A stretch of 64,000 bases of DNA from Nibricoccus sp. Lineage in GTDB: Bacteria; Verrucomicrobiota; Verrucomicrobiia; Opitutales; Opitutaceae. The stretch lies in assembly GCA_047602425.1 (NCBI GenBank), contig JASGHG010000001.1, forward strand, positions 2,496,001-2,560,000, given 5' to 3'. The notes beneath the pieces are model-generated. The model did no database searches, was not told the origin of the DNA, and worked only from the letters and a program-made list of their open reading frames with translations. Within the stretch, counting starts at the first letter, position 1. Each line of letters starts with the position of its first letter. Below are positions 1-42,332 of this stretch, in pieces. Made by a program: the position numbers and the translations under genes.

Positions 1-2312
1 GGCGTGGCGCGCTGAGCCGGACCTTGCGCACCTCCTGTGCAAATGGTTCGGCGATGGGATCGAGCAGGCGCGAATGGAAAGCATGCGCATTTTTCACCGG
101 GCGGAAAATAATTTCCCGCGCGCCGAGCAGTTTTTGAAATTCGGTCATCTCGGGCACGGGCCCGGCGACCACGCAAAGTTTCGGGCCGTTGATCAGGGAG
201 ATGGAAAGCGAAGGGCTCAGCAGGGGCAGTAGTTCCTTTTCCGGCAGCATGACCGCAAGCATCATGCCCTGAGGCAATTCGTTCACCAATTTGGCCCGCA
301 CGACGACAAGCTTCAACGCGTCTTCAAGGGAGAACACCCCGGCGAGGCACGCTGCGACATACTCGCCCATGCTGTGACCCACGATGCGGTCGGGAACGAG
401 TCCCCAATCGAGCCACAACCGCGCGAGCGCATACTCCAGCGTGAATAAAGCCGGATGGCAATTGACGGTATCGTTCAGTTTTTGCGTGGCGGGATCGAGT
501 GGTTCGTCGGCCGTCTTCCCGAGCATCCGCTTCAGATCGATGCCGCGCGGTTTGGCCGGCTCGTTTTTGGCCCGGTCTTTTGGATAGAGAAGATCGCGGA
601 CGTCGAGGCCGAGGAGTGGATGAAGAATTTGCGCGCACCGGTCGATCTCCCGGCGGAATACTTCATACTTTTCATAGAGGCCCTGGCCCATGCCAACGTA
701 ATGATCGCCTACGCCAGGCAGGAGAAAGATCACCGGCGCTGCGCCTTTTTCGGGCACGATGCCGGACAATTGTTTTTTGGCATCAGGAGCGCGAAGCGAG
801 GTGGCGATTTCGGGAGCGGTTTGCCCCACCGCAATACGCCGGTGCGAATAGAATTTCCGACCGGCATGCAATGTGTGCGCGATGTCCGAGAGCGCGGGAA
901 CGTCGGGTTGGGAAAGAAAATTGGTGAATTCGCCGGACATCGTCTCTAGCGCCGGCGCCGATTTCGCGGAGAACGTGAGCAAATACGGACCGCCTGTCTT
1001 CGGCGACGGTGCGACCGCAGGCGCTTCCTCAAGGACGAGGTGAGCGTTGGTGCCTCCCATGCCCGTCGACATGATGCCTGCCCTCAACGGCGTATTATTG
1101 CGTGAAGTCCAGGGAGCGACTCTGTTGTTCACGAAAAATGGCGTGGTGCTAAAATCGATTTCCGGATTCGGCTTGGTATAATGAAGCGTTGGCGGGATCG
1201 AACGGTTTTTGAGCGCCAGCACCGTCTTGATCAAACCTGCCATTCCAGCGGCGGCATCGAGGTGGCCGACGTTGGTTTTCACCGAACCGAGGGCGCAAAA
1301 GGAATTTTTTTGCGTGAAATTCCGGAAAGCCTTGGTCAAGGCGAGCACTTCGATCGGGTCGCCCACCGGCGTGCCGGATCCATGCGCTTCCAGGTAGGAA
1401 ATAGTATCGGCATCGACGCCGGCATTGGCAATGGCTTCGACGACCACGTCCGCCTGCCCGTTGACGCTGGGTGTGGTATAGCCCGCTTTGGCCGAGCCAT
1501 CGTTGTTGACGGTCCGAGCCCTTGATCACTGCGTGGATATGGTCGCCTTGCGCGAGCGCGTCGGCGAGGCGTTTTAACACGACGACGCCCGCGCCGCTGC
1601 CAAAAACAGTGCCATTAGCACCGGCATCGAACGCGCGCACATGGCCATCCGGTGAGACCACACCGCCGCCATCGTAGATATAACCAGTCCGATGGGGCAC
1701 ACGAACCGACACGGCGCCAGCGAGGGCAAGGTCGGTTTCTTCGTTCAACAGACTTTGCCGGGCGAGATGAATGGCGACCAGCGAGGTCGAACATGCCGTC
1801 TGCACGGTCATGCCCGGCCCGCGCAGGCCGAGTTTGTACGAGATGCGTGTGCCGAGGAAGTCCTTGTCATTGACGATCAGCGTCGGGATGTAGTCTTCGG
1901 CAAAGCGGTCGTTCAGGCCGCTGTTGGCGAAGTAAGTGTTCATCGCCGAACCAACATAAACACCTACGCGGCCGGGAAAGCGGTCCGGATCGCAGCCTGC
2001 GTCCTCGATCGCGCTGTAGGCGACTTCAAGGAGAATGCGGTGCTGCGGATCCATGGCGCTGGCTTCGCCCGGCGAATAGCCGAAGAACGTGGCATCGAAG
2101 GCCTCGGGCGCATCGAGGACGGGCGCGGCCTTCACGAAATCGGAACGGGCCAGCAACTTTGGCGAAACTCCCGAGGCGAGAATTTCCTCGTCGGTGAGAC
2201 GGGCGATGGACTCGACGCCTCCGACGAGATTCTGCCAAAATTCGGTTGGATTTTTTGCGCCCGGAAAGCGGCAGGCCATGCCTACAATCGCGATGTCAAA
2301 TTCGTTGTCCAT
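1..2312 (-). pseudogene. Type I PKS (hybrid-type KS, then AT; continues beyond left edge), interrupted by a 1-nt insertion near 1513 (true pseudogene or sequencing error)
   Basis: ATG at 2312 (MDNEFDIAIVGMACRFPGA), 4 nt after the stop of the upstream A-domain gene. KS motifs are MDPQHR and VQTACSTS. After AVIKGS the KS continues in another frame: VNNDGSAKAG...EAHGSGT...KTNVGHL...GMGGTNAHLVLEE. AT motifs GHSMG (~365-379) and HAFHS (~71-85) follow in that same frame. Confidence 0.9.
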
Positions 2313-2316
2313 CGGC

Positions 2317-3933
2317 TCAGGCGGTCTTGGACCGTAGGATTGGTTCGGGGAGGGCCTTGCGATCGGCCTTGCCATTGGCGTTTGTCGGAATTTCGGCGAT
2401 CTTCTCGAAGTGATCGGGCACCATGTGCGCGGGCAGATAACGATGCAGGTGCTGCTTGAGGGCTTCGGGATCGATCTCCTGTTTGCAGACGAGGTAGGCG
2501 ACGATGAGGATGATGCTCTCGGAATATTTTTTCACCGTGACGACGCAGTCTGCGATGCCCGGGAATTTTTGGATCGTATTTTCGATCTCGCCCAGTTCGA
2601 TGCGCAGACCGCGGATCTTCACCTGATGATCTTCCCGGCCGAGATATTCGATATTGCCGTCGGGCAGCCAGCGCGCGATGTCGCCGGTGCGATAAATGCG
2701 TTCGCCGGGAACCGCCGGGCTTTCGGTGAAACGTTCGCGGGTCAATTCGGGATTGTTTAAATAACCACGCGCCAGACCCACGCCGGCGAGGCACAATTCG
2801 CCAGGCTCGCCGATTGGGGCCTGCTCGCCATCCTTGATGATGTAAGTGCGGATATTTTGAATGGGCCGGCCGATGGGAATGCGATCGAAATCGCCCTGCG
2901 TCGGGCAATCGAAATAGGTGACGTCGACCGTGGCCTCGGTTGGACCATAGAGATTGATTAGTTGTGCGCCGACATTGCGATGGACGTTGTCATTGAATTT
3001 TCGGACGTGGGCGGGGCTGAGCGCTTCGCCGCTGGCGAAGATCCGGCGGAGCGTGGGGAGCGCCGTTTTCACCTTTTCCGGACGGCCGTCGAGATACTCG
3101 AGGAAAACGTTCAACATCGACGGTACGAAATGCATTACGCTCACGCGGTGTTTTTTGACAGTTTCCACGAGGGCCTGGGGCATCCGTTCGCCGCGTGGCA
3201 TCAACATGCAGACAGCCGAACCTTCGAGTGCCCACCAAAAGAGTTCCCACACGGAAACATCGAAACAGAACGAAGTTTTCTGCAAAAGGACGTCGCGACT
3301 GTCGATGGGATAGGCTTTCTGCATCCACTTGAGCCGGTTCACCACCGAATGGTGTTCGATCATTACGCCCTTGGGCCGGCCGGTGGACCCGGACGTGTAG
3401 ATGACGTACGCGAGATCGGTGGGGCGGTTGACCAAGGCCGGATTGGTGCCGGGGAAATTGTAGGTTTCGACCTGTTCGAGATTGACGGTGGGAACGCCGG
3501 CGGGCGCCTTGCCGGCGGTGGCGCCGTGAACGAGCAACAGGTTCACACCGGCGTTCTGCAAAACGTAACTGATGCGTTCCACCGGATCCTCGGGGGACAG
3601 CGGAAGGTACGCTCCGCCGGCTTTGATGATGCCGAAGATCCCAATGATCATCGCGAACGAACGTTCAACCATGATGCCGACGATCTGGCCTGGCTGCACG
3701 CCACGGCTTCGCAGCAGGTGAGCCACCTGGTTAGCCCGTTCGTTTAACTGGGAATAACTCAAAACCGGCGTGCCCCAAAATTTGTCGTGGTCGCACAGCA
3801 CCGCGGGTTGCTGGGGATGGCGAAGCACTTGTTCCTCGATCAACTCCTGCAACGTGACGTTGTTTTGGTATTCGCAGGCAGTGCGATTGAAAGAGGCGAT
3901 CTTTTCGAGATCGGTTTCAGTCGAGATGGACAT
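2317..3933 (-). CDS. Stand-alone amino acid adenylation domain protein, predicted L-serine specific
   Basis: Core motifs YTSGSTGRPKG, NLYGPTE, YRTGD and NGKADR. The binding-pocket residues read DVWHFSLVDK. Start reassigned to MSISTETD (3933) because the longer ORF overlaps the acyl-CoA dehydrogenase. Confidence 0.92.
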   Translation of the reverse strand: MSISTETDLEKIASFNRTACEYQNNVTLQELIEEQVLRHPQQPAVLCDHDKFWGTPVLSYSQLNERANQVAHLLRSRGVQPGQIVGIMVERSFAMIIGIFGIIKAGGAYLPLSPEDPVERISYVLQNAGVNLLLVHGATAGKAPAGVPTVNLEQVETYNFPGTNPALVNRPTDLAYVIYTSGSTGRPKGVMIEHHSVVNRLKWMQKAYPIDSRDVLLQKTSFCFDVSVWELFWWALEGSAVCMLMPRGERMPQALVETVKKHRVSVMHFVPSMLNVFLEYLDGRPEKVKTALPTLRRIFASGEALSPAHVRKFNDNVHRNVGAQLINLYGPTEATVDVTYFDCPTQGDFDRIPIGRPIQNIRTYIIKDGEQAPIGEPGELCLAGVGLARGYLNNPELTRERFTESPAVPGERIYRTGDIARWLPDGNIEYLGREDHQVKIRGLRIELGEIENTIQKFPGIADCVVTVKKYSESIILIVAYLVCKQEIDPEALKQHLHRYLPAHMVPDHFEKIAEIPTNANGKADRKALPEPILRSKTA

Positions 3934-5182: not shown

Positions 5183-5221
5183 GTTTGGCGCGGTTGAATG
5201 GTTTTGGTTGGCGGACGGGAC

Positions 5222-5476: not shown

Positions 5477-5494
5477 GTTAGGTTTCGCGATAGG

Positions 5495-6406: not shown

Positions 6407-9400
6407 TTAATCGCGCTTGCGCAGGCGTTGCTTGCGGCGGGCGCCCCGTTCCATGGCATCGCTGGCGGCGCTTGCCTCGGTCTTTGACGGCTCCAATTTT
6501 TCCGCCAGAAGGCGCACGGTCGGGCTCTCGAAAAGGCCCACGATCGAAACCTGATGCTTAAGCTCCCGGCGGATGGCGGCGACTACTTGCACCGCTTTGA
6601 GCGACGTGCCGCCGGCTTCGAAGAAATTGTCGGTGGGTTTTAGGTGAGGATTGCCAATCGCGCGACGCCAGATGCTGAGCAGTTTGTCTTCAAGACTGGC
6701 AGCTGCATCGGTGCCGATTGCCGGCTCGGCGAAGCCGGACGCGTGCAGACGCGCTGTTTCCATGGCCGAACGGATCTTGGCGACCGAATCCAAAGTCGTG
6801 GCGATTTCAACGAGACGGGCTTCCGCTCCGAAGCCGCGTGTATGCGTCGCTTTGGCGGAAACTGGCCGATTAGCGATGGATTGGGATTCGGTAGTTTCGG
6901 AGCTGCCTGAGGGTTTATACCGCAGCGAAATGAGTTCCTCGGCGGAGAAACGATAAATAGTTGAGCCGGATTTTTCTTGGGCAGAAGCAGCACGGAGGGA
7001 CTCGACGAAATCCCGCGCAGGCTGGTTCTTTTCCGTAGTCTGGAAGGGAAGTTCGACAAACTCGCAACCCCGAGCGCGCGCCTCGGCGCCAACGCGGGCG
7101 AGAATCCCGTGCTCGACGCCGCGACCCAGCACTCGACAACTCAGGAGGAAGGTGTCGACCGAGCATACGTTGCCCGCGATGGAAAAAAGCGCCAAGCCGA
7201 CCATGCCATAATCGCCAAAGCGATCCTGCACGTTTACGGCGAGGCAGCCATTCGCGGGATTTTCCGAAAAACGTTCGATGTCAGCCGCTGAGCGGCGTTT
7301 GGTCGTGAAATTGAACTGGTTGGTGCGAAGCGTAAGCTGGGAAACGCGATCGAAATGTTCCGCCATTGGCTTGAAGATGGAAATCTCCAAGTGAAGTCCC
7401 TCGATGAAGTCTTTGAGGGTCGACACTTGGTCGCGGTATTTTTCGCGTTCTGCGTTTTCCCGCATTCTGTGGGTTCGGGTAAGATCCTCGGAAGTCGTCC
7501 GGAGATGGTCAAACGCCCAAGTGTGATCCAGGAACGCAGGGATTTCGGCGGGATTGGCCGGAAGCGGAAGCGTAAGGACGGCTGGCACGCTGGCCTGCAC
7601 TTCAGCGCATTCAACCGGGTTGTCGTCCACGAAAATAAAACTGTCCAAGCCCAGTCCGAGTTCCTGGGCGAGCGAACGAAGATTTTCCGACTTGGGCGAC
7701 CAGTTGATGCGCGTCGCGACGAGATGTTCCCGCCGCAGTTTCATGTCGGGATTTCGGTCAAAAACGCTCCAGACGTCCGCCTCCGAGTTTTTACTGCAAA
7801 GGCACAAAAGCATACCCGCCTCCATTTGCCGGAGCATGAACTCCTGGAGCGCTCGATGAGCGACGGTCACTTTCACTCCGAGGGCACCTTCCTCGCCGCA
7901 TGCCCCCTGCCAGAGCGTGTTGTCGCAATCCAAAACAATGACCTTGTACGGAGAGCGCTGAAGCGCGGAGATCGTTCTAACGAGGGCGGTGCCGATCGAA
8001 GCAAAACCTTCGGCGGTATAGGGAACATGGCCGGCGGCGTCCGCGTGCGGATCGTGAAGGTCCGTTACCGGATAACGTTCAGCGATTGCGGTGGAGCTGA
8101 GGGTATGGATGTTTGAAAATCCACGGACGCGGTCGATTAGTTCGGTTTCGATTTCGCGGAGGAACTGGCCGGAATCGGAGAAGCCGGAAGCCAATGGATT
8201 CGTCGGGCAAAAACACAGGATCGTGGGCGTGCTCGAAGAACGCGTGTAGGCATCCAGCGCCTGAATAAACTGATCGGCGGTTTTTTTGACCTCAGCTTTA
8301 GAAGCTGCAAAAGGTTCGGCTTCGGTGGCGCATGTCTCGTTGCGACTGGCGCGGGTTGCGTAGACGTTAAAAAGACCGGAGCCGGTCAGAAGATTCTCCT
8401 CTTCGACCGCGCAGTTAAAACCCTGGGAGATTAAAATCGACCGCACTTCATCGACCGCTTTTTGTGTCCGGTCGTGCACTTCAATCACGATCTGGCCGAT
8501 CAGCGGCCAATGGGTTTTTTCGATGCCGCGTAAAATCTCAAGTTCGCATTTTTCAGCGTCGATTTTAAGCAGGTCGATCCGGCTGAGCTTATTGTCGCGG
8601 ATAATATCCGAAACGGACAGCAGGGGGCAGTCGAACACCTGGCGGTCGAGTCGGCCGGTCATCAACTCGTCGACGTAGACATCGGTTGAAGGCTCGGACG
8701 AACCGAGCTCGGTGCGAACCATGTTGGCCACGACCGCTTGAATTGCCTGACGATCTTCGTCGGCGTTCGAGTGGAAACTCGAAAATACGGAAGATTTCTC
8801 GTAGAAAGTGAGAGAGGCTGAACCGCGTTTTTCGGAAACGCCCAGGTTGAACGGCTGGAGGCGTTCGCCGTAGGCGGAGCAATTTGCCTGAAGCGCCTTG
8901 AAGGCTACAGGGCTCGGTTCGTAGGCAAAGACGCGGGCTTGCGGCGCTCGGCTGCGCACAAAAAGCGAAAAGAGGCCGATGTTGGCCCCGATGTCCACCA
9001 CCGTGGCGTCTTCGGGTATTTGAATGCCATGACGTAAGTAGACACGGTCTTCAAAAATTTCTTTGTAAACGTACTCGGTCTCGTGCCGGTTGAGATGAGC
9101 GACTTCCAAGCCATTGGCCAGGGTATGCCGATTCAATCCAGCAAAGGCATTGGTGGTTGTGACTGGATCGAGTTTGGACGCGGCGGACTCGCTGCCAGAG
9201 GCCCAGTCGTTTAAGTTCAGCAGGATGACGTTGAAACCATTTTGGTTTCGCCGGAGCGCGCTTTCCGGACTGAGGAGTTCTTGAAAAACCTGGTTATAGG
9301 GCGCAAACGTGGTCTTTAGTGGACGTCCAAGGCGGAAGCCCCAGAACGTGAGCACCTCCTCGACCGGGTCAGCGGTGAAGGTCGCGGCGACGACAAGGTC

Positions 9401-10294
9401 GGTTTTCGATGGTTCGGCGGGTTGTTCTGACCGGGTTTGCCCCAGATAGGTGAAATGCACGCCTGAAAGTTTCAGATGGCAGCGGCCATGGTCATCGAAG
9501 ACTTCAAGATCGCCGGAGTGCAGTTCGCCGACTGCTTTTCCCGACTGGCGGAGGCGCGCTCTAACCCACACGCTACCGCTAAAAGCGAGATCGAAGATTT
9601 CCAACTTCTCCATTCCCCGGAGAATGAATGTGCTGCCGCCAGCGATCGAAAATGAGGCCAGCAGCTGCGCGACGCCATCGAGCAAGATGGGATGCAACTG
9701 GTGGATTTGACCGGGTTTGGCGATCGGCATGGCGAGTTGGCCGAGAGCTTCAGGGCCGTTTCGCCAGACTTTTTGTACGATCTGAAATTCAGGACCGTAC
9801 TGATTTCCATTTTTCGCCAACTGCTCGTAGTAGCCGGTTTGATCGGTGTGGTATTCGGATTTTTCCGTCGGCGACGGTGCAGGGCATTGGCCTGACGGGG
9901 TAGGCCAACCGGTTATTACCTCTAAACGGGCGCAGGGAGGAGGAGTTGGTGAACTCGCATCGCCGCCTTCCCGAAACGTGTAGCGAAACGAATGTTCGGT
10001 CGTGCGTTCGATACTCGCCGTGAGCAGAGTCTCGGCATCGGAGAGGATGACGGGATTGAGGAATTCGATATGCGTCAGCCTGCTGGGCATGGTGCCGAAA
10101 TGCTCGGCATGAATGCAAAGCACGGCCTCGATATAGAAAGAGCCGGGCAGAACGACCAAGTTTTGGAAACCATGATCCGTCAGATAAGGAAACGAGGCAG
10201 TTGCGATCCGGACGGTTGCCGTGGCCCCACCGGCGTCGGCCGGTTCAAATGCCACTGCTCTGCTTATGGAAGAAAATGTACCGGGTGCCTTCAA
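6407..10294 (-). CDS. Multidomain PKS dehydratase - FkbM-type methyltransferase - FkbH glyceryl transferase/phosphatase - ACP protein
   Basis: DH: LTDHGFQNLVVLPG and HPILLDGVAQ. MT: VDIGANIGLFS and LLKIDAE. FkbH: VLDCDNTLW, FVDDNPVE, RTNQFN and LLSCRVLGRGVE. ACP: FFEAGGTSL. TTG start. Confidence 0.9.
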   Translation of the reverse strand: MKAPGTFSSISRAVAFEPADAGGATATVRIATASFPYLTDHGFQNLVVLPGSFYIEAVLCIHAEHFGTMPSRLTHIEFLNPVILSDAETLLTASIERTTEHSFRYTFREGGDASSPTPPPCARLEVITGWPTPSGQCPAPSPTEKSEYHTDQTGYYEQLAKNGNQYGPEFQIVQKVWRNGPEALGQLAMPIAKPGQIHQLHPILLDGVAQLLASFSIAGGSTFILRGMEKLEIFDLAFSGSVWVRARLRQSGKAVGELHSGDLEVFDDHGRCHLKLSGVHFTYLGQTRSEQPAEPSKTDLVVAATFTADPVEEVLTFWGFRLGRPLKTTFAPYNQVFQELLSPESALRRNQNGFNVILLNLNDWASGSESAASKLDPVTTTNAFAGLNRHTLANGLEVAHLNRHETEYVYKEIFEDRVYLRHGIQIPEDATVVDIGANIGLFSLFVRSRAPQARVFAYEPSPVAFKALQANCSAYGERLQPFNLGVSEKRGSASLTFYEKSSVFSSFHSNADEDRQAIQAVVANMVRTELGSSEPSTDVYVDELMTGRLDRQVFDCPLLSVSDIIRDNKLSRIDLLKIDAEKCELEILRGIEKTHWPLIGQIVIEVHDRTQKAVDEVRSILISQGFNCAVEEENLLTGSGLFNVYATRASRNETCATEAEPFAASKAEVKKTADQFIQALDAYTRSSSTPTILCFCPTNPLASGFSDSGQFLREIETELIDRVRGFSNIHTLSSTAIAERYPVTDLHDPHADAAGHVPYTAEGFASIGTALVRTISALQRSPYKVIVLDCDNTLWQGACGEEGALGVKVTVAHRALQEFMLRQMEAGMLLCLCSKNSEADVWSVFDRNPDMKLRREHLVATRINWSPKSENLRSLAQELGLGLDSFIFVDDNPVECAEVQASVPAVLTLPLPANPAEIPAFLDHTWAFDHLRTTSEDLTRTHRMRENAEREKYRDQVSTLKDFIEGLHLEISIFKPMAEHFDRVSQLTLRTNQFNFTTKRRSAADIERFSENPANGCLAVNVQDRFGDYGMVGLALFSIAGNVCSVDTFLLSCRVLGRGVEHGILARVGAEARARGCEFVELPFQTTEKNQPARDFVESLRAASAQEKSGSTIYRFSAEELISLRYKPSGSSETTESQSIANRPVSAKATHTRGFGAEARLVEIATTLDSVAKIRSAMETARLHASGFAEPAIGTDAAASLEDKLLSIWRRAIGNPHLKPTDNFFEAGGTSLKAVQVVAAIRRELKHQVSIVGLFESPTVRLLAEKLEPSKTEASAASDAMERGARRKQRLRKRD

Positions 10295-27042: not shown

Positions 27043-28434
27043 TTAGGCCGAACCGGCTTTTGTGATTTCAGGATTTTGGTCCTGTGCGTCAGGTTGCTTC
27101 CCATCCGGACCGTCGCTTTGCGGGGAGGCAAGCTCCGTGACTGCGGAGTCGGCTTCAACATCCGCGTCTTCCGATTCAACGAGCGTGGCCGGGGCCATTT
27201 TGGCCGACGAGTAAAGCGAGCCGATCATCGCGAGGTTCGAAAACAAAAACACGAACGACTGGTCAAAATAATAGACCGACATGCAGGAACAGGCTTGGGC
27301 GAAGAGCGCTGCACCGAGCGTCCAGATGTGGAATTGTTCCGAAAGCGGCGCATTTTCGTCCAAGCGTATGGTTTTCCCCACGTAGTTGAATGCCGTTCCC
27401 AAGGCGAAAATGAAAAGGAGCATCAAGGGGAAACCGCCAAAAACACCGTAACCAATATATTGGTTCGTTATGTCGCAATGATCCTCGCTCCACGATACGC
27501 CATATGGCATCCAGTGCCGGGTGTACGCAGTTCCCGCGAACCACCATTCACTAAAATGGTTGATGGCCGCCTGGATCAGGGCGGCCCGGTGATATCCCGT
27601 GCTGCTTCCGGTAAGATCGATCCGGGCGATCAAATAATAGGCGGGCGCCTGCATGCACACGTCTAAAACAATATAGAACACCACCGCCGCGATCCGCATC
27701 TGGCGGGTAAACGCGCGCCATTTCCAAAGCATCAAACCGAACAATCCGAAAACCACGCTCATCAGCGGGCCGCTGGATCTGCTCGCCAGCACCATCAGCA
27801 GACAGGCGACAATGCCGACCTTGGCCGCCAGGCGTTGCGTTTTCCAAATGCCCACCATCAAGGGCAGAACCGCGGCGCCCACCGTTCCGGCGAGGATTGA
27901 ATGGGAAAATGGACCCTGTGCGCGGATACTGCCTTCACGGACGGAGGCCATTTCGGGAACGTCGCCGAAAATGGCGAACATGTTGCGACCGGTTAATTTT
28001 TCACCGACCATTTCAAGGGCAACCGGGAGAAGCACGAAGGCGGTGATCTTCGAATAAAAAATGATATCGTCGATATTCTGACAGAAGATGCGGATCAGAA
28101 AATATATCCCCAAGGTATTGTAGACGGTGCCAAGCTGGCTGGTGAGGGGCTGGACAAAAATACTGCTGAACAGACACCAAAAAGCCCAAGCCAGCATGAA
28201 CCAATCCAAGCCATTGAACCCGCCCGCAGGACGTTCGTTGCGAATGATGACACGAGCGAAACCAAATAAAAGGAGCAAACGGATGATAGGGAAATGAAGC
28301 GGGCCGACCTCGATTCCTTGTCCCAAGGTCATGTAGCAGGCGCCCGCAAGCAACGGCAGCGGAGCCCAGCGCCGCGGTACCGACAAAAGCGCTGCGGCGT
28401 TGATCAAAAGAAAAATGAAAGCGAAACCATTCAT
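27043..28434 (-). CDS. O-antigen ligase/Wzy polymerase family membrane protein
   Basis: Multi-TM; RAQGPFSHSILAG, SRSSG and periplasmic loop STGYHRAAL...DITNQY. ATG at 28434, with an alternative TTG at 28476. Confidence 0.78.
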   Translation of the reverse strand: MNGFAFIFLLINAAALLSVPRRWAPLPLLAGACYMTLGQGIEVGPLHFPIIRLLLLFGFARVIIRNERPAGGFNGLDWFMLAWAFWCLFSSIFVQPLTSQLGTVYNTLGIYFLIRIFCQNIDDIIFYSKITAFVLLPVALEMVGEKLTGRNMFAIFGDVPEMASVREGSIRAQGPFSHSILAGTVGAAVLPLMVGIWKTQRLAAKVGIVACLLMVLASRSSGPLMSVVFGLFGLMLWKWRAFTRQMRIAAVVFYIVLDVCMQAPAYYLIARIDLTGSSTGYHRAALIQAAINHFSEWWFAGTAYTRHWMPYGVSWSEDHCDITNQYIGYGVFGGFPLMLLFIFALGTAFNYVGKTIRLDENAPLSEQFHIWTLGAALFAQACSCMSVYYFDQSFVFLFSNLAMIGSLYSSAKMAPATLVESEDADVEADSAVTELASPQSDGPDGKQPDAQDQNPEITKAGSA

Positions 28435-28537
28435 TCCAGCGTGGCTCCACGGCAGATTTGCAGGGAGCTTGGGCAATACGATATCACATTTGCGCGAACC
28501 GACGACTGGTAAACGAAGATCGTTGTGCCGGCCGGAA

Positions 28538-32009: not shown

Positions 32010-33077
32010 TCAGGCTTTGCGGCGGCGCCAGTTGATGAACGCCATTACGCTGCGGCTGAGCAAGCCTCCCGGATGGGAGTGAGGAGGAAGTTGGGTTACA
32101 TCCTTACCGCCGAAACCGCTTTTGAAGTGATAACCGCCCGGATTGGAGACCGGGTCAATACCGCCAAGATCGTATGCGTTCGCGCCTTGTTGCTTCAACC
32201 AGAGCATGGCCTGCCATTGCAGGAAATACGCGGCTTTCAGCTCGCGGGCTTTCTCGTCGGTCGCTCCGAGCAGGTAGATGGCCGTCGTTCCCATGAGAGA
32301 GCAAACGAGCGCCCCGATGGCTTGGCCGTCTTTCTTCGCCAAGAAGGTCTGCATCCGGGCCGAACCAATAAGAAGATCCTGCATCCGGCCAAATTCCTCG
32401 GGATCGACGGAAGTCTCGAACCGTTTGCGCTCCCACATCCCTTTGTAGAGTTTTAGAAATTCGCCATAGGCCGCCGGGCCATCGCTAACCTCGAGCACGA
32501 GGTCGTTTTTTTCCGAGCGGTTGAGCTGATTGCGCCATTTTTGATCGAGGGCTTTGCGCATGGCTTCGGGAGCCGGCGCAAGATCGACCACAACCGTTCG
32601 ATAGGAGGAAGTATTGAATTCCGGTGTGATGCCCGCGGCGGTCATGGCTTGGGCATATTCCACGGCTCGGGCTTCGTCGGCAAAGGCGTTGGCGATCACT
32701 TTGAGCGAAAGTCCACGACGCTGACCATATTCACGCTGGAGATGGACGAACATCGCGCGGACGACTGCGGCGTCGAGGGGTTGGCCCTTGCGTTGGCAAA
32801 GCGGTCCCCAGCGCAAATACGCCACGCCGGCCGGCAAGACCGGGACTCGGGCGATGCGGAGTTGCGCGGCGGCGATGACTTGCCCTTCGCGGCGGAGAAT
32901 GAGATGGCTCAGGTTTTGCGCGCCCCACCGAACCGCTCCATAGGCCCAGGATTGATAGATGCTGGCATCCTCGAATTGCTCAAGGATTGCGCTCCAGGAT
33001 TCCAATGTCTGTCCGTCGACCTGCACCTCGATGGTGCTGGCTTGGGATAAAGACGGGCTTACTGGCTGGGTCGGCAT
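32010..33077 (-). CDS. FemAB-like / GNAT aminoacyl- or acyl-transferase
   Basis: IYQSWAYG, LRWGP, LDQKWRNQL, LQWQAM and YDLGGIDPVSNPGGYHFKSGFGG. Alternative start at 33125. Confidence 0.85.
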   Translation of the reverse strand: MPTQPVSPSLSQASTIEVQVDGQTLESWSAILEQFEDASIYQSWAYGAVRWGAQNLSHLILRREGQVIAAAQLRIARVPVLPAGVAYLRWGPLCQRKGQPLDAAVVRAMFVHLQREYGQRRGLSLKVIANAFADEARAVEYAQAMTAAGITPEFNTSSYRTVVVDLAPAPEAMRKALDQKWRNQLNRSEKNDLVLEVSDGPAAYGEFLKLYKGMWERKRFETSVDPEEFGRMQDLLIGSARMQTFLAKKDGQAIGALVCSLMGTTAIYLLGATDEKARELKAAYFLQWQAMLWLKQQGANAYDLGGIDPVSNPGGYHFKSGFGGKDVTQLPPHSHPGGLLSRSVMAFINWRRRKA

Positions 33078-33093
33078 TTTTCGAGAAGAGAGG

Positions 33094-33753
33094 TCAGCGG
33101 AGTCGTTTGATGAACTTGCGGGCATTAATCAGCATTTGGGTGCGCAAGCCCGGACCTTTTTGCACAAGTTTGCGAATGGCATCGAGCGACATCGAGCGGG
33201 TGATAGTGGTGCGGGCTTGCAGCCATTGACGCGGCGAGGCGGTTCCACCGTCGCTGGTGAAAACCTTCTGGTAGCCGGCTTGGCGTAGTCCGCTTAACAC
33301 GCGACGATCGTAGGAACCGAAAGGACATGCGGCGCTTTGGATGGATTTGCCGCAGACGTGTTCGAGGGTCTCTTTGCTTTGCGCGAGTTCCTTGTGCAGT
33401 TCGTCCGCAGTTGTTCGCCGCCAGGGAACGTGATTAATTCCGTGGCTGCCGATCTCCATGCCCGCAATTTGTAGTTCAATGACTTGGTTCGGCTTTAAAA
33501 AGGTGGACTGGTCGAGGCGACCGGAACAAATGAAGAAGGTCGCCTTGAGGCCGCGTTTTTGGAGCGCAGGCAAGGCAAGTTCCAGATCGGAAACATTGCC
33601 ATCGTCGAAGGTCAGTTGGATGTGGGATTGTCCGCGCACGAGGTTAAGCACCGTTTCAAAAAATCCCTGGTCCAGCCAGCAGTTGAATTCGCCGGCGTCG
33701 ATCTCGCGCGTGACCGGTCCGACACCGTGGAAATTCAAGATCAGGGGAGACAT
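33094..33753 (-). CDS. Polysaccharide deacetylase family protein
   Basis: LNFHGV, LTFDDG, ATFFI, EIGSHGINH and CPFG. Confidence 0.9.
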   Translation of the reverse strand: MSPLILNFHGVGPVTREIDAGEFNCWLDQGFFETVLNLVRGQSHIQLTFDDGNVSDLELALPALQKRGLKATFFICSGRLDQSTFLKPNQVIELQIAGMEIGSHGINHVPWRRTTADELHKELAQSKETLEHVCGKSIQSAACPFGSYDRRVLSGLRQAGYQKVFTSDGGTASPRQWLQARTTITRSMSLDAIRKLVQKGPGLRTQMLINARKFIKRLR

Positions 33754-34672: not shown

Positions 34673-34678
34673 GCCGGA

Positions 34679-35647: not shown

Positions 35648-37930
35648 CTAGCCTTCGCCAAGGGCGTCGTTGTTCAGAATTTTTGGAACGTAGGTCTTGG
35701 TTTTGTTCAAGACGATGCCGACGGGCGATTTCGATTCGGTCAGCATGTTGCAAGCTTTGGCGGTGGCATCGCGATCGGCTTTTTCCGCTTCGACGACCAT
35801 CAGCATCATATCCATGAAATTCGCCAGTCTGGGCGTGATGCTGATCTGGTTCACTGGCGGCATATCGAAAATAATATAATCGAAGTCGCTCGCCTTGAGT
35901 TTGGGTATGAGCTGGTTGAACCGTTGCGGCATGCCTTTGGCCAGACGTTCGCTGTTTGAATCCTCAGACACGACGTAGAGGTTGGTGTTGACCAGGGCGG
36001 AATCCTTCGTTTCCAGCATTTGTTCAAGGCCGACTCGTGCGCTTCCTTTGTGGAAATGCTGTGCGGAACCCTGGCCTTTGGTCATATCGACAAGAAGCAC
36101 ATTTCCCTCGCCAGTTTCGGAAAAGCTGCGGGCAAGTCCGGCGGCGATCGTGGTGATGCCGCTATTTTTCCCGAGGCCCGTGACTGCGACGAGCTTGGGC
36201 TTGTGCCGCACGTCGAGGGTGTCGAAGTAGTTAATCAGCCGGTCCCGCAGTGTTTCATAAAACGGACTGAGGGCTGGCTCGTCTCCATTGGCGCGAACGG
36301 CGAGCGTGGCGGGAGGCGTTTCTGACGACCCCGCTTTGCCGGAGGGCGGAAGCAAAAGTTTGGTGGTGGCACCTCCGACAAGGCTGACTCCTTTCGCCTT
36401 CATCCTGGGGATTGAGAGGAAAAGAGGAAGTTTGAGCGTGCGCTCAATGTCGGAGGAGCGGCGGATGGAACGGTCGATAAACAATTCGATCAAGAAGGCC
36501 CAACCAAGACCTATCGCTATGCCACCGCCGGCGAGGCCGGCCAGAATCTTGGATTTCTTTTTCCAGTCCTTAAAGGGGCGGGTGGGGGCCTCGATCATGC
36601 TGATGTTGGAAACCCGTCCGCTGCCGAGGGTCTCCTTGATGCGAGCCTGTTCAAGGCTGTCGGAATAGTAGCGGTAATTGGCTTCCTCGCGATCCCGGCG
36701 GCGGCGCAATTCGAGGATCGATGTTTCAAACTGGTCGACTTTTGCGGCTTCGGTCCGAACGGCTTCAAGCTGGTTGTTCAGCTCGTTGATCCGTGACTGA
36801 AGGGCGACGATCTGGGCGGCTTCGGCGTTCGGATCGTACGTGTTGGCTGACACCGTGGCCGGCGACGCCGTTCCGGAGGATGTCCGGAGCAGGGCGGGAT
36901 AGTCGGCTTCGAGCTTTTTGCGCCGCTCCTCGAGCTCGGCCTGCTGGGCGCGGACTTCTTGGACCATGGAGCTTTGTTCGGTATAGTTCGCGCGGAGAGC
37001 CTCCTCACGCTGGCGAAGCGAGGCGAGCAGGGCCAAGGTTTTTTGGTGTGCCTCGACTTGGTCGGCGGGGACGGTCTGGGGCTTCCACTCGGAGGCGGGC
37101 GTGGTACTGTCCTTGGTCAGTTCCTTGAGGATGGATGTGCGCTGGGCGAGGTCGGCTTTGAGATCGTTGATCTGCTGGCGGAGGCGGGCGGCCTGGTCGG
37201 CGAGGGTTTTCTTGGATTCTTCCAGCGAGATGACGCCGGCTTTTTTCATGGCTTGCCGTAATTCCTCCTCGGTCTGGTTCAGGCGTGCGCGAAGCTGGTC
37301 TGTTTCCTGCGAGAGGAAATCGCCCACGATGCCGACAGCTTGGTGGATGGAGACGTGTTTTTTAAGATAGCTGCCAATGATTTCCCGCAGCACGTTCTGG
37401 GTGACAGTGGGATTGGTGTGGCGGTAGACGAGACGTATGACGCTGCTTTTGGGTGGAACCTCGGTGGTTAGACCGTTGTTCACGACAAAGGCGGCGACGG
37501 CGACGGGATCGCCATTCACAGGACCGGAAATAATTTTATCCGCGCCGACGGCTCGCACGACCTCCTCGGCGAGATCCATGCTGTTCAGAATTTCCAGTTC
37601 GGACGTAATGATGGTTTCGCCGCGCTGGTCGGGAGATTTGATGACAGTGTCGTCGCGTCCCGGCCCGGTGGTTTTGCCGTCCTCGGAAACGACATAGCGG
37701 ATGAAAAGCTTCGCCTCCGATTGGAAAGGCGGTGGGCTCATCGTGTACATTGCCGCCGCGAGTCCAAAGCCCAACAACGAGCACAGGATGATTTTCCACT
37801 TATGGCGGAACAGCGTGTAATAGATATCCCCGATGCTCAGGCTCAACCCTGACTGTGGCGCGGCGCCGGGTCGGATCGACGAAGGGGTGCGGTTGACGAG
37901 ACGAGGTTCGGGTGAAGTAGAAGTGGGCAC
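35648..37930 (-). CDS. wzc: Wzc/GumC-like polysaccharide co-polymerase with a degenerate tyrosine-kinase domain
   Basis: TM, coiled-coil, TM layout, then VAVTG...LLVD...IIFDMPP...GIVLNK; GTG start. Confidence 0.85.
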   Translation of the reverse strand: MPTSTSPEPRLVNRTPSSIRPGAAPQSGLSLSIGDIYYTLFRHKWKIILCSLLGFGLAAAMYTMSPPPFQSEAKLFIRYVVSEDGKTTGPGRDDTVIKSPDQRGETIITSELEILNSMDLAEEVVRAVGADKIISGPVNGDPVAVAAFVVNNGLTTEVPPKSSVIRLVYRHTNPTVTQNVLREIIGSYLKKHVSIHQAVGIVGDFLSQETDQLRARLNQTEEELRQAMKKAGVISLEESKKTLADQAARLRQQINDLKADLAQRTSILKELTKDSTTPASEWKPQTVPADQVEAHQKTLALLASLRQREEALRANYTEQSSMVQEVRAQQAELEERRKKLEADYPALLRTSSGTASPATVSANTYDPNAEAAQIVALQSRINELNNQLEAVRTEAAKVDQFETSILELRRRRDREEANYRYYSDSLEQARIKETLGSGRVSNISMIEAPTRPFKDWKKKSKILAGLAGGGIAIGLGWAFLIELFIDRSIRRSSDIERTLKLPLFLSIPRMKAKGVSLVGGATTKLLLPPSGKAGSSETPPATLAVRANGDEPALSPFYETLRDRLINYFDTLDVRHKPKLVAVTGLGKNSGITTIAAGLARSFSETGEGNVLLVDMTKGQGSAQHFHKGSARVGLEQMLETKDSALVNTNLYVVSEDSNSERLAKGMPQRFNQLIPKLKASDFDYIIFDMPPVNQISITPRLANFMDMMLMVVEAEKADRDATAKACNMLTESKSPVGIVLNKTKTYVPKILNNDALGEG

Positions 37931-38286: not shown

Positions 38287-39402
38287 TCAGCTTCCAAGAA
38301 CCGCTTTCAAGGCGGAGGCCACCGCGTCGGTTTGCTGGTCGGTGAGCTCCGGGTACATCGGAAGCGAGAGGAAGGTATCGCCGCAGGATTCGCTGACGGG
38401 GAAATCGCCCTTTTTGTAGCCGAGGTGGGCGTAGGCTTCCTGAAGGTGTACGGGGACCGGGTAATGAATGCCGCAACTGATGCCGCGTTCGCCCATGGCC
38501 TTGAGGACCTCGTCGCGATTTTGCAGACGAAGAGCGTAGACGTGGTAAATATGGTGGCGACCGGGCAGTTCGACCGGAAGCGTGAGGCCTTTGACGCCAG
38601 CAAGGAGCTGGTTGTAGCGGGCGGCGGCGCGACGGCGCCCGTCGTTGGCCTTGTCGAGATACTTCAATTTAACGCGAAGGACGGCGGCTTGCAGGCCGTC
38701 CATGCGCCCATTCCAACCAATGACGTCGTGGTAATATTTCTTTTTCTGACCGTGCTCACGGAGCATTTTCATGCGGTCGGCGAGGGCAGCGTCATCCGTG
38801 GTGACGGCGCCGGCTTCGCCCCACGCACCAAGGTTCTTGCCGGGATAGAAACTGAAGGAACCGGCTGCGCCGATCGTGCCAGCCTTGCGGCCCTTGTAGA
38901 GGGCACCCTGGGCTTGGGCGGCGTCCTCGATCACATGCAAATTATGCTTTTTTGCGATGGCGAGGATCGGGTCCATGTCGGCGCACTGGCCGAAGAGGTG
39001 CACGGGCATGATGGCCTTCGTGCGGGGAGTGACGGCAGCCTCGATCTTGGCGGTATCGAGCGTATAGGAAACGGGATCGATGTCGACGAAGACGGGCTTG
39101 GCGCCGGAGTAGCTGATGGCTTCGGCCGTGGCCATGAACGTCATGGGCGCGGTGATGACCTCGTCGCCTTGGCCGATGCCGAGGGCAAGGAGCGCAAACC
39201 ACAGGGTATCGGTGCCATTGCCGGCACCGACGCAGAACTTGGAGCCGCAATATTTCGCGTAGTCCTCCTCGAACTTGGCGACAAACGGACCGCCAGCGAA
39301 GGCGTTGGTATCGATGACCTCGTTCATCGCGGCCATGACTTCGGCGCGGATCGGGTCGTGATGAGCTTTGAGATCGAGGAACGGAACTTTAACGTTTTGC
39401 AT
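38287..39402 (-). CDS. DegT/DnrJ/EryC1/StrS aminotransferase (WbpE-like)
   Basis: [41 protein letters not shown] and SLPMYP. Confidence 0.93.
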
Positions 39403-39886
39403 CGAGAGTTTTGATTACGCGCGCGGGATTGCCAACAACGACGGCGTTGGCCGGGACATCCTTGGTGACAACACTTCCGGCACCGATCAACGCATTTTCG
39501 CCAATCGTTATGCCGCAGAGGATGGTTGCGTTGGAACCGATTGAGGCGCCGCGTTTGATGAGCGTTTTAATGCAGGTCCAGTCGGCCTCCGTCTGGAGTT
39601 TGCCGCCGGCGGCGGTGGCCCGGGGAAAAAGATCGTTGGTGAACATCACGCCGTGGCCGACAAAAACCTCGTCTTCAATCTCAACGCCTTCGCAGATGAA
39701 ACTGTGGCTGGAGATCTTGCAGCGGCGGCCGATTTTCGAGCCTTTTTGAACCTCCACGAACGTGCCGATCTTGGTTTCGTCGCCAATTTCGCAGCCATAG
39801 AGATTGGTGAAGGCGAAGATTTTAACGTCTTTGCCGAGCTTGACGGAGGGCGCTATCAACTGGTTGGGCGTCGATGGTTGGCTCAT
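39389..39886 (-). CDS. Hexapeptide-repeat sugar N-acetyltransferase (WbpD-like)
   Basis: LbH repeats, [21 protein letters not shown] and VTKDVP...GNPAR. Confidence 0.92.
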
Positions 39887-39940
39887 GGCAATAAACGTGT
39901 ATTACCTTTCGGTCGATGCACAGAAGGCTGGCAATGCGGC

Positions 39941-40987
39941 TTAGCGGGCCGCAACCAATTTTTCAGCCGGCGCGAATTCCACTGCGGCGCCACCCAGCTT
40001 GAGGGACTCGGAAGAAGCCTCAAGGATGCGAACGACCTCCAGGCCTTTTTGTCCGCTGGTGATCGGCGTAGTACCATTCTTGATACAATCGAGGAAGTGC
40101 TGACACTCGGTTTTGAGCGGTTCGTCCTGCTTGATGTACGGGGCGTAAATGTCGCCATAATGATAGGCGTAGTGAAATTCGGCGAAAGTATCGTAGTGGG
40201 GCGGACGTTCGACGCGGGCGTCGAAGATCTTGATTTTTTCCTGCGGCATCAGGTCATCGTAAACAATCATGCGCTTGCTACCCACGATGGTCATTTCACG
40301 AACCTTGCGCGGATCAAGCCAGCTGCTCTGAATGATGGCGGAACGCTCTTTCGAGAATTGCAGGTACATCGTGGTAACATCCTCGATGCCGCGGGTGACG
40401 TGCGCGGTGCCGTTGCAATTGATGGTCTTGGGTTGTTCGCCCAGGATGTAGAGAATGACAGAGATGTCGTGCGGCGCGAGATCCCAAGCGACGTTGATGT
40501 CTTTTTGGAAGAGGCCGAGATTGAGGCGGCGGGCACTGATGTAGCGGATTTCGCCGATGTCGCCGGAATCGACGATTTCTTTGATCTTACGAACGGGCGG
40601 CGAATAGAGGAAAGTGTGGCCAACCATTAGGATCACGCCTTTGGCCTTGGCGATATCGATGAGCTCCTCGCATTCCGCGGTCGAGGCGGCGAGGGGCTTT
40701 TCGATCATAACGTGTTTGCCGGCGTTCAGCGCGGCCTTGGCCATTGGATAGTGAAAGCGAACGGAAGTGGCGATGACGATGGCATCGTGGTTGTTGCCCT
40801 CGAGCATGCGATCGTAGTTGGTCTCGCAGCCAACTTCGGGGTAAAGACCCTTGAGGTGCTTCAAACGCGCCTCGCTGATGTCGCACATCGTCTTGAGCTG
40901 GCAGTCTTGGAGCGAACGGAAGTTACGAATAAGGTTTGGGCCCCAGTAGCCGCAACCGACGACGCCGAGCTTTATGCCAGTCTTCAT
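39941..40987 (-). CDS. Gfo/Idh/MocA oxidoreductase (WbpB-like sugar 3-dehydrogenase)
   Basis: GCGYWGPN, EKP, GHTF and DLAPHD. Confidence 0.92.
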   Translation of the reverse strand: MKTGIKLGVVGCGYWGPNLIRNFRSLQDCQLKTMCDISEARLKHLKGLYPEVGCETNYDRMLEGNNHDAIVIATSVRFHYPMAKAALNAGKHVMIEKPLAASTAECEELIDIAKAKGVILMVGHTFLYSPPVRKIKEIVDSGDIGEIRYISARRLNLGLFQKDINVAWDLAPHDISVILYILGEQPKTINCNGTAHVTRGIEDVTTMYLQFSKERSAIIQSSWLDPRKVREMTIVGSKRMIVYDDLMPQEKIKIFDARVERPPHYDTFAEFHYAYHYGDIYAPYIKQDEPLKTECQHFLDCIKNGTTPITSGQKGLEVVRILEASSESLKLGGAAVEFAPAEKLVAAR

Positions 40988-41028: not shown

Positions 41029-41790
41029 TCAGACGGTGCTAAGCTGGGCGTTGGAGACGCTGGAGTTTTGCGTGGCGGCCGGTTGTGTCGTGGTGGCGGC
41101 GACGGGAGCGGCTTTGCGGCTCAAGCGAGTCTCGATCACTTGCTGGAAGAGGGCGGGGCCGGTCATGAGCATGATCTTGAGATCGAGCCACAGCGACTTC
41201 TGGTGAGCGTATTTGATGTCCAAGTAGATCATTTCGCTGAAGGTGGTTTTGTTTTTACCGCTGACCTGCCAGAGGCCGGTCAAACCGGGGACGGACGCGA
41301 AACGGCGCTTTTGCACGATGGTGTAGTTCTCGTATTCGTAGGGAATGCAAGGACGCGGACCGACGAGGCTCATCTCGCCGCGGAGGACGTTAATGAGCTG
41401 AGGCAGTTCATCGAGGCCGGTGGCGCGCAGAATCCAGCCGCCGGGAATGAGGCGGGAATCCTTCTTGGTGTCCATCTTCACCATCGGAGCATTGGAGCCG
41501 ATCAGTTCCTTGAGGTAGGCCTGATGGGTGTTGGTCTCCGCGTTCATTTTCATGGTGCGGAATTTGTAGCAAAGGAACGTTTTGCCGCGGAGGCCGACGC
41601 GGGTTTGTTTGAAGAGCACGGGGCCGGGAGAGCTGATTTTGGTGATCACCGCAATGATGGTGACCAGCGGTAACAGCAAGGGGAACGCGGCGACGCAGCA
41701 TGCGATATCGAGTGCGCGCTTCCAAGTGGGGGAGGGGTTCCCGATCGGTTCGCAGAGGTCGGGTTGGACTGTTTGGATCTCGGAGTTCAT
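41029..41790 (-). CDS. Priming polyprenyl-phosphate sugar-1-phosphate transferase (bacterial sugar transferase)
   Basis: KRALD, YKFRTM, LDELPQLINVLRGEMSLVGPRP and PGLTGLWQVSG. Confidence 0.95.
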   Translation of the reverse strand: MNSEIQTVQPDLCEPIGNPSPTWKRALDIACCVAAFPLLLPLVTIIAVITKISSPGPVLFKQTRVGLRGKTFLCYKFRTMKMNAETNTHQAYLKELIGSNAPMVKMDTKKDSRLIPGGWILRATGLDELPQLINVLRGEMSLVGPRPCIPYEYENYTIVQKRRFASVPGLTGLWQVSGKNKTTFSEMIYLDIKYAHQKSLWLDLKIMLMTGPALFQQVIETRLSRKAAPVAATTTQPAATQNSSVSNAQLSTV

Positions 41791-41834
41791 GATGCGAATT
41801 TTGTGTAGTTAAATCTTAGGGTTTATTGAGTGGA

Positions 41835-42332
41835 TCAGATGGCCTTTGCCAGGAGGCTGCGGTCGATCGTCAGGCGCGCGTCGCAGCCGAGGATCGAAAG
41901 CAGAACGGCGACGCGTTCGCGGTCGTTGTGTGCGTCGAGGATGACGGCATGGAGGCCCTGCATGGGCCCGAAAGTGATTTCAACCTGTTCGCCAGCGGAG
42001 AACGCCGAGGCGGGGCTCGGAAGGGCGTTGCTTTCGGCCCAGGCCTTGATCTGAGCGATCAATTGCTCATCGACCCGGGCGGGCTGGGCACCGAAGCTGA
42101 CGAGATCGATGACATCGCGCGCATAACGGACGGCGCGGTAATCGGTGGTGAGGTCGCAACGGCAGAAAAGGTAGCGCGGGAAAAGCGGCTCCACGACTTC
42201 GCGGCGTACGCGGCGAATGGTTTTGTGAAGACGAATGGTTGGGAAATAGACCTCGAGGCCGAGGAAGGTGCTGAGTTGTTCAGCGACGAATTGTTCCCTC
42301 TGCGGACGGGTGTGGATGCAGTACCAGTTCAT
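41835..42332 (-). CDS. rfaH: NusG-paralogue transcription antiterminator (RfaH/UpxY-like)
   Basis: WYCIHTRPQRE, EPLFPRYLF, and KOW segment GEQVEITFGPMQG...RVAVLLSILG; first gene of the locus. Confidence 0.88.
   Translation of the reverse strand: MNWYCIHTRPQREQFVAEQLSTFLGLEVYFPTIRLHKTIRRVRREVVEPLFPRYLFCRCDLTTDYRAVRYARDVIDLVSFGAQPARVDEQLIAQIKAWAESNALPSPASAFSAGEQVEITFGPMQGLHAVILDAHNDRERVAVLLSILGCDARLTIDRSLLAKAI

Follow-up and report, generated by a model that had tools for sequence, protein, structure and literature searches.

A 64,000-nucleotide stretch of the complete 5.16-Mb genome of a Nibricoccus sp. (Opitutaceae, Verrucomicrobiota; positions 2,496,001 to 2,560,000 of contig JASGHG010000001.1, here contig C1 of genome G000), called the window below, carries a polysaccharide locus interleaved with nonribosomal peptide synthetase (NRPS) and polyketide synthase (PKS) genes. 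The locus and, above all, the thioesterase (TE) that ends its assembly line just beyond the left edge of the window are the subject of this analysis. It is moderately likely to be a Wzx/Wzy exopolysaccharide locus, of XrtC/PEP-CTERM type and controlled by RfaH, whose carrier-protein lines supply acyl side chains of the glycan. Among XrtC genomes, the clade to which the TE belongs and a FemAB/VimA-like aminoacyl transferase are mutually exclusive.

Organization of the locus

Open reading frame (ORF) calling and family scans give 29 co-directional minus-strand genes from the RfaH-like gene to the PKS gene, in the order (Wzx/Wzy/Wzc, glycosyltransferases (GTs) and amino-sugar genes, NRPS, FkbH, PKS) that a preliminary description of the window had reported for about 30 genes under an RfaH-like head; the widest intergenic gaps of the run are 629, 396, 387, 356 and 240 bp. 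The first gene encodes an RfaH/NusG-type antiterminator (41835..42332; best NCBIfam match TIGR01955 at 105 bits, under the 144.5 cut-off). Directly 5' of it, on the same strand at 42362..42373, lies a 12-mer with one mismatch to the ops consensus; it is identical in all 4 genus genomes examined (G000, G056, G101 and G133), and sites with one mismatch to this consensus number 368 genome-wide. A second ops-like sequence (~38145, minus strand) stands in the 356-bp gap between DegT and Wzc, the slot that holds FemAB in several relatives. Promoter and terminator scanning came out at chance level (6 versus 8.6; 27 versus 27.0); in the beta-helix/Wzx gap, a 12-pair hairpin with a T-rich tail (24386-24412, minus strand) is a candidate terminator for RfaH read-through.

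Next come the WcaJ/WbaP-type initiating phosphoglycosyltransferase (41029..41790), a Gfo oxidoreductase (39941-40987; NF040723, UDP-GlcNAc 3-dehydrogenase, at 1.9e-58, under cut-off), an LbH N-acetyltransferase (39389-39886) and a DegT aminotransferase (38287-39402). We infer that the last three (38287..40987) form a Wbp-like, WbpB/D/E-like set for a 3-amino sugar: their matches fit 3-amino-sugar enzymes, QdtB/WxcM-type matches outscoring WbpE/3mqg, and the Gfo protein has no solved relative at 1e-25. The Wzc/Wzz co-polymerase (35648..37930) is followed by a CE4 deacetylase (34679-35536), a GT2 (33797-34672), a second CE4 deacetylase (33094-33753), a FemAB/FemX-like protein (32010..33125) that is a distant paralogue and not an orthologue of the FemAB of XrtC loci (27% identity over part, 5.9e-10), another GT2 (30966-31970), a GNAT acetyltransf_6 protein (about 29728-30969), a second, divergent DegT protein (28538 to about 29731), a Wzy polymerase-like protein (27043..28476; Wzy_C at 7e-6, under the Pfam cut-off), an AT3 membrane acyltransferase (26048..27022), a secreted beta-helix, pectate-lyase-like protein (24449..25807) and the Wzx flippase (22610..24061). 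Initiating enzyme, GTs, Wzx, Wzy (with the score just given) and co-polymerase are thus all present, as in a Wzx/Wzy-dependent polysaccharide locus.

Family scan and alignment resolve the first thiotemplate protein, NRPS1 (18448..22413), into condensation (C), adenylation (A, with a Thr code) and peptidyl carrier protein (PCP) domains followed by a Vat/CatB-like LbH acyltransferase. Between it and the PKS block lie an LbH acetyltransferase (17674-18351), a WcaK-like pyruvyltransferase (16350-17627), an FrhB-like Fe-S protein (14940-16268), an NDP-sugar dehydrogenase (13015-14310) and a fusion (10691-12922) of GT4, assigned by Pfam, to an N-terminal half read from its sequence as deacetylase-like. 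FrhB-like and WcaK-like genes are repeatedly paired, often together with Wzx (window 14940-17627; L008, L009, L011, L015 and G832 C2). The PKS block consists of a starter loader, recognised by family scan and motifs, with DH, FkbM-type methyltransferase (MT), FkbH and acyl carrier protein (ACP) domains (6407..10294), an aminomalonyl-ACP-type set of 3HCDH (5495-6361), ACP (5222-5476), ACAD (3992-5182) and a stand-alone Ser A domain (2317 to about 3930), and a PKS with ketosynthase (KS), acyltransferase (AT), ketoreductase (KR) and ACP domains (1..2312), which runs off the left edge and ends at G000:C1:2493659. With the queries used, the genome has no second NRPS/PKS locus and no second match for Sfp-type phosphopantetheinyl transferase (PPTase), Wzx or Wzc.

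That no TE had been seen at the end of this line is a window-edge effect: the TE-bearing, 2459-aa NRPS2, C-A(Ser)-PCP-C-A(Gly)-PCP-TE with a Cys nucleophile, sits 2.4-9.8 kb left of the window (G000:C1:2486237-2493616, minus strand). Beside it are genes for a GT2, DUF4184, PPTase, methyltransferase, SDR, LbH and NadE-like proteins, an ACP, a TIGR03098-like ligase and AsnB (G000:C1:2475433-2486221), and then for a 414-aa protein conserved beside XrtC, the exosortase XrtC, PrsT, PrsK, PrsR and a VPDSG-CTERM-like protein (G000:C1:2465483-2475356). The exosortase is of the XrtC/VPDSG-CTERM type, with TIGR04151 as its top match (286.5 bits; cut-off 300); PrsT, PrsK and PrsR exceed their cut-offs, and 5 of 14 VPDSG-CTERM motif matches resemble genuine CTERM tails. 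Annotation of the genes between a point 30.5 kb left of the window and position 42.3 kb revealed no dedicated small-molecule exporter, in agreement with the preliminary description. Part of this flank, a second carrier module of ligase, ACP, AsnB, NadE-like and LbH genes (G000:C1:2475433-2483494), is shared with glycan loci of bacteria that are only distantly related; it is found also at L123, L005, G101 C5, G013 C33 and G071, one record being actinobacterial.

One extra base near 1513, a +1 frameshift, splits the KS in the G000 assembly. This is an assembly error or a recent mutation, because runs X2 and X3 each have a contig that lacks the base (X1 being without coverage) and the PKS reading frame is single and intact in the four free-standing cassettes described below. 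The gene order from ACAD to NRPS1 (4229-20000) is the same in a contig of run X2 that is 15.8 kb long and about 85-90% alike.

On the other side of the locus, 43135-57726 holds, upstream of RfaH and in the same orientation, a DUF1573 gene followed in the list of genes by tandem membrane TPR proteins, three of which match PMT_2, a family resembling protein mannosyltransferases; the membrane TPR/PMT_2 run is possibly a protein-glycosylation block. A GH43 glycoside hydrolase and a divergent AraC regulator (59363-61872) are unrelated to the assembly-line locus.

A resident glycine-ended terminus

The genomes of the genus share the locus from RfaH to XrtC, but its thiotemplate content differs. G056 has A(Gly)-PCP-TE and a PPTase, and nothing more; G133 has A(Ser), KS-AT-ACP-C-A(Gly)-PCP-TE and A(Gly)-PCP-TE; G101 has A-PCP, KS-AT-ACP-aminotransferase-C-A(Gly)-PCP, a C-degenerate A-PCP-TE, AT3 and A(Gly)-PCP-TE. 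At E<=1e-45 the NRPS2 TE finds nine matches in 6 of 250 other family genomes, and eight of the nine (47-54% identity) adjoin glycan genes or XrtC, the glycan neighbour in G120 being an NDP-sugar dehydrogenase on a 4.6-kb contig. In a tree of 27 rows, none excluded, the nine TEs linked to glycan genes or XrtC, that of G000 included, form one starred clade (96/88) apart from the TEs of the free-standing cassettes; all nine members of the clade are so linked. The modules before the TE differ among these loci (A-PCP alone; Ser plus KS-AT; KS-AT-aminotransferase; C-A), and the last intact A domain of the line is Gly-coded in each genome with a clade TE. The Gly-PCP-Cys-TE end is read as resident in the locus, served by differing upstream modules.

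In its fold the TE is unexceptional: an alpha/beta-hydrolase with a Cys-Asp-His triad, as in type I thioesterases, and with the ordinary type I fold in its structural model (pLDDT 88). Its database matches number 1032 with E<=1e-30, falling to 390 with E<=1e-40; among the proteins listed from this wider family, 46/54 and 59/93 have a Gly-like code as their last complete A code, 120/120 and 117/120 have a Cys nucleophile, and the Pfam lists of 240 listed homologues contain no GT-TE fusion. Outside the family, none of 203 other Verrucomicrobiota genomes has a match at E<=1e-40; 11 of 151 Acidobacteriota genomes have matches of 35-42% identity, outside the clade, and of ten such loci that were read three are glycan loci and seven are not. 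Plasmid matches amount to 21 records, mostly cyanobacterial, of which 20 show 31-36% identity across most of the query; no occurrence in viral contigs was confirmed.

Two further observations concern TE-ended proteins. Acidobacteriota glycan loci of both Wzy and ABC type (G1171 C13, G1153 C18 and G1094 C46; L188-L195) have their own NRPS/PKS genes, whose TEs are of Ser type and fall outside the clade; the arrangement may have arisen there independently. C-A-PCP-TE proteins whose degenerate A domain is missing the conserved Asp (G101 C5 30493-34476 and many of P0171-P0290) are probably relay modules.

Probable displacement of a FemAB-like transferase

The exclusion stated at the outset concerns the 27 of 121 family genomes with a strong XrtC match (E<=5e-60; five exceed the curated cut-off), searched with the FemAB gene of G159, which matches TIGR03019 at 4.9e-41, under cut-off. 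Of the 21 TE-negative genomes, part of which are so classed on the presumption that the TE scan covered the same genome sample, 19 carry a FemAB orthologue (36-51% identity; split in two in G020 and G025); the six TE-positive ones have none (best E 6e-11). No orthologue was found in TE-positive G120, which is 75% complete, or in the XrtC-poor controls G081 and G057. In 10 of the 21 TE-negative genomes, the 40 kb read beside XrtC hold no modular NRPS/PKS. A tree of XrtC from 15 of these 27 genomes requires three switches, at least two of them forced, and congeneric sisters differ: G013 has the TE, G071 the FemAB gene. The G000 locus itself yields no TIGR03019-like FemAB orthologue, only the distant paralogue (E about 6e-10), and no FemAB relic in the WbpE-Wzc gap; with the family FemAB, rather than VimA itself, as query, G000 shows no VimA-type aminoacyl transferase.

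An imported PKS cassette

The starter loader has matches in 12 of 200 family genomes and is full-length in four (G081, G057, G199 and G108), all of which carry A(Ser), PKS, loader, 3HCDH, ACP and ACAD together with a C-A(Ala code)-PCP-TE protein. The core domains of these cassettes are about 45-77% identical to those of G000, the DH 27-36%. None of the four gives a match to the Wzx/Wzy/Wzc/GT reference set, and none of 26 scanned neighbours is a polysaccharide-synthesis gene; either side of the cassette has more than 25 kb of flank in G081 and G057, and contig ends truncate the flanks of G108 and G199.

NRPS2, by contrast, has its nearest counterparts for Ser A, Gly A and TE, domain by domain, in glycan loci: its Ser A domain is 64% identical to that of the G133 glycan locus versus 44-47% to those of the glycan-free cassettes, and its TE 47-53% identical to glycan-locus TEs versus 30-33% to cassette TEs. 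Its C domains are slightly nearer the cassette NRPS (35-40% versus 28-34%, except for a 48% partial match in G120). The four glycan-free occurrences mark the six-gene FkbH/aminomalonyl PKS cassette as imported, probably grafted from a free-standing cluster onto the resident Ser/Gly-TE end; base composition leaves the graft unmarked (GC 0.563-0.588 versus 0.574 for the genome). Large orphan NRPS/PKS clusters elsewhere (G022 C6, G118 C4 and G019 C55; L110-L116) have MT-FkbH-ACP inside proteins of 4,100-4,300 aa as well as stand-alone FkbH and ACAD genes, with no glycan match in the stretches read.

The free-standing cassettes bring in a different reading, that the PKS/NRPS2 line frees a small molecule, an enol-ether amino-acid peptide and possibly an antimetabolite, and only shares an RfaH operon and a PPTase with the glycan genes. 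The six genes do stand free in 4 of 200 family genomes beside a C-A(Ala code)-PCP-TE gene, with MFS and TonB-receptor genes near the G199 cassette, and the G000 line is complete, with a TE of canonical fold. Yet the NRPS2 TE differs from the cassette TE in the way just described, the minimal A(Gly)-PCP-TE of G056 would free only glycine, the FemAB exclusion is left unexplained, and no exporter was recognised in the stretch given above. We regard release of a free product as unlikely.

Predicted chemistry

Specificity codes of the A domains, read by alignment, predict Ser for the stand-alone domain, Ser then Gly for NRPS2 and Thr for NRPS1. The DH, MT, FkbH and ACP motifs of the loader are intact, as are the AT and KR motifs of the PKS, and a Ser A domain, ACP, 3HCDH and ACAD occur together, as in a ZmaGHIJ-type aminomalonyl-ACP pathway. 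The code of the stand-alone domain is identical to one called Ser in PMC8313283.

The simplest product of such a line is probably 2-amino-3-hydroxy-4-methoxy-pent-4-enoyl-Ser-Gly. FkbH would put glycerate on the loader ACP, where MT and DH would convert it to 2-methoxyacryloyl (or 2-O-methylglyceryl); A(Ser), ACP, 3HCDH and ACAD would provide aminomalonyl-ACP, and KS-AT-KR would join the two into the 2-amino-3-hydroxy-4-methoxy-pent-4-enoyl chain, to which NRPS2 would append Ser and then Gly. The FkbH, MT and dehydrogenase genes may instead give a methoxymalonyl unit. In the final step the Cys-TE, without hydrolysis, would move the chain through its Gly carboxyl onto the free amine of an amino sugar, conceivably a Wbp-type diaminouronate de-N-acetylated by CE4 and carried on a nucleotide sugar or a lipid-linked repeat; the TE would thereby stand in for the tRNA-dependent, FemAB/VimA-like enzyme. 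NRPS1 would take Thr or acyl-Thr, and its LbH domain would pass the Thr unit to a sugar hydroxyl or amine before flipping by Wzx.

Precedents exist for the parts. ZmaGHIJ of zwittermicin and ClbDEFH of colibactin are aminomalonyl-ACP sets, and FkbH-type proteins are glyceryl loaders; the G000 genes resemble these in 3HCDH, ACP, ACAD, the Ser A domain and the FkbH loader. They differ in having one PKS module and a fused DH-MT-FkbH-ACP starter, of which no description was found in the open-access literature, and in lying within a glycan operon.

NRPS1 and its LbH domain

The last domain of NRPS1 is Vat/CatB-like (5e-23), with the hexapeptide helix of the xenobiotic acetyltransferases and a His aligned to the Vat N-H motif, a residue that we take to be catalytic; its solved relatives are acetyl-CoA O-acetyltransferases. 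An LbH domain of this type terminates 30 database proteins (search range 726-2312 aa), both NRPS and PKS, including some of Ketobacter and Microbulbifer, and the His is invariant in 25 of 25 aligned; in one protein (P0014) a GT2 is fused to C-A-PCP-LbH. Searches of 200 genomes of the family and 400 of the phylum found no fused LbH and one unfused match apiece, and in the order containing Pseudomonas one genome of 401 has two fusions. Scans of the collections for such fusions were swamped by the generic motif and amount to no census; 18 of 105 loci were read.

NRPS-LbH and Wzx occur together elsewhere, in unrelated bacteria. The fusion of L119 lies in a glycan locus (GT2, Wzx, MT, NRPS, GT4), as does one fusion of G832 (C2: Wzy, Wzx, WcaK, FrhB, GTs, AsnB, ACP, exosortase); the other (C21) adjoins AT3 and an alginate-lyase-like gene, and its contig stops before any Wzx or GT appears. 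No TIGR03019 match was found in G832. LbH relatives outside NRPSs have a glycan gene at 15 of the 17 loci chosen for reading. The NRPS1 LbH domain would, by this analogy, add a second, Thr-derived group to the glycan. In the fusions at L119 4388-10294 and G832 C2 18352-24165, the first A domain has an unusual code minus the Asp and adjoins a CheR-like methyltransferase; these A domains probably load a non-amino-acid starter.

The solved relatives of the LbH domain also lend something to another envelope route, in which AT3 carries the chain over the membrane onto the polymer or a lipid anchor, and TE and LbH serve as relay, editor or PCP-Thr O-acetyltransferase. The loci of G000 and G056 contain an AT3 gene, and in G101, G133, G1094 and G832 C21 one lies in or next to the NRPS block. 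None was found, however, among the part of the ORFs scanned in the TE loci of G013 and G035, AT3 is also found in an NRPS-free XrtC locus (G077), and NRPS1 has no other release domain. A route through AT3 seems improbable.

The thioesterase as a probable transfer enzyme

The TE is probably a transfer enzyme, and not the sign of a free metabolite, because its clade is tied to glycan genes and XrtC, because FemAB is excluded where it occurs, and because NRPS-LbH fusions recur beside Wzx. We therefore favour, at somewhat better than even chances, the reading that the TE moves a Gly-ended acyl chain onto an amino sugar of the polysaccharide, that it has displaced the tRNA-dependent route, and that the imported PKS cassette elaborates the chain. 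The preliminary description had likewise proposed transfer of an acyl group to the glycan in place of release, and had named as contrary evidence a PKS block ending in its own TE/transporter and occurring elsewhere without glycan genes. The line does end in its own TE, and four relatives do have the block free of glycan genes; the proposal is retained on the other evidence just listed.

Several points weigh against transfer to the glycan. The strongest, directed at a glycan role of the PKS block as such, is the existence of the glycan-free cassettes, whose TEs (in G081, G057, G199 and G108) likewise have a Cys nucleophile, so that Cys alone is not diagnostic. The ninth TE match (G013 C42; 41% identity), which shares the Cys motif and branches as sister of the clade, shows no glycan gene nearby, and no sugar-binding feature was detected in the TE model. 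The FemAB/TE exclusion (Fisher p 9.5e-5 per genome, 0.006 per genus) is drawn from kin that are not independent; G015 and G072, of one genus and with strong XrtC, yielded neither TE nor FemAB orthologue; and inside their loci G000 and G035 retain a distant FemAB-like gene, a possible source of a simple aminoacyl group. Co-location of thiotemplate and glycan genes could also partly reflect an insertion hot-spot under RfaH.

An extension of the favoured reading is speculative and on the doubtful side: the Gly-ended, amine-bearing chain may be the nucleophile for XrtC transpeptidation of PEP-CTERM proteins, that is, an NRPS/PKS-built tether between protein and exopolysaccharide.

Comparison with known systems

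If the proposed transfer is correct, part of a large orphan family of NRPS/PKS termini shifts from antibiotic synthesis to the building of the cell envelope, and TE and LbH domains become defined as glycan transacylases; in the open-access literature we found no account of an NRPS TE or LbH domain that transfers a group to a Wzy glycan. In D-alanylation of teichoic acid by Dlt and glycylation of lipid A by AlmEFG, an A domain and a carrier protein likewise feed an amino acid to an envelope polymer. Those systems handle a single amino acid with stand-alone proteins and an MBOAT or other acyltransferase, whereas G000 has multi-module PKS/NRPS proteins with TE or LbH termini and, among the genes scanned, no Pfam/NCBIfam match to an MBOAT or AlmG-type transferase. 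The TE of Pks13 transfers an acyl group to trehalose, LpxA and LpxD are LbH enzymes with ACP-bound donors, and Pls is a poly-lysine synthetase. Pks13 TE is among the top fold matches of the G000 TE model, a generic likeness (TM about 0.64, about 21% identity) to an enzyme of a different pathway.

A PKS/NRPS tied to a Wzy locus has been described for a secreted product, carenaemin of Collimonas; PMC8313283 links PKS/NRPS function genetically to a Wzx/Wzy locus and a pyruvyltransferase and proposes a route. By the same route the G000 peptide might be attached to a single lipid-linked repeat and, once flipped, be secreted as a glycopeptide, and the WcaK-like gene of the locus would suit this. Such a product is rather improbable: Wzy, Wzc and exosortase genes indicate a polymer, and FemAB displacement is left unexplained. 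Carenaemin differs besides in being, as that text has it, a diffusible antifungal made from two separate, unlinked loci with no exosortase connection. An uncharacterised Roseobacter cluster, likened here by its description in PMC4337385, has NRPS and PKS beside a glycosyltransferase, as in G000, with a PPTase, in a conserved set of four genes. The peptidylamido flagellin glycan of C. difficile was considered as an NRPS-dependent parallel and set aside: passages of PMC5207246 name FemAB-like, ATP-grasp and cyclodeaminase-like genes for it, with no mention of an NRPS.

A close resemblance is to the Wbp/Vim system of Porphyromonas gingivalis and Tannerella forsythia. There, according to PMC7468200, VimA places Gly or Ser on a de-acetylated Wbp sugar, the anchor of cargo of the type IX secretion system (T9SS). 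In common with G000 are a CE4 deacetylase, an AsnB-type amidotransferase and a sortase-type enzyme in the system, and also, as predicted for G000, Wbp-like 3-amino-uronate genes and Gly or Ser on a sugar amine. The amino acid arrives through FemAB-like VimA in the one; in G000, where no orthologue was found, a modular thiotemplate line with a Cys-TE would take its place. The glycan is A-LPS with T9SS in the one, a Wzx/Wzy/Wzc polymer with XrtC in the other. That paper also raises, as speculation, a role for PEP-CTERM FemAB proteins in making the still unidentified acceptor of exosortases; the swap of tRNA-dependent FemAB for Gly-PCP-TE would name an enzyme and a likely residue for that acceptor, and with them a concrete test. 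The G000 locus would work in the manner of both Wbp/Vim and Dlt/Alm, yet is a member of neither.

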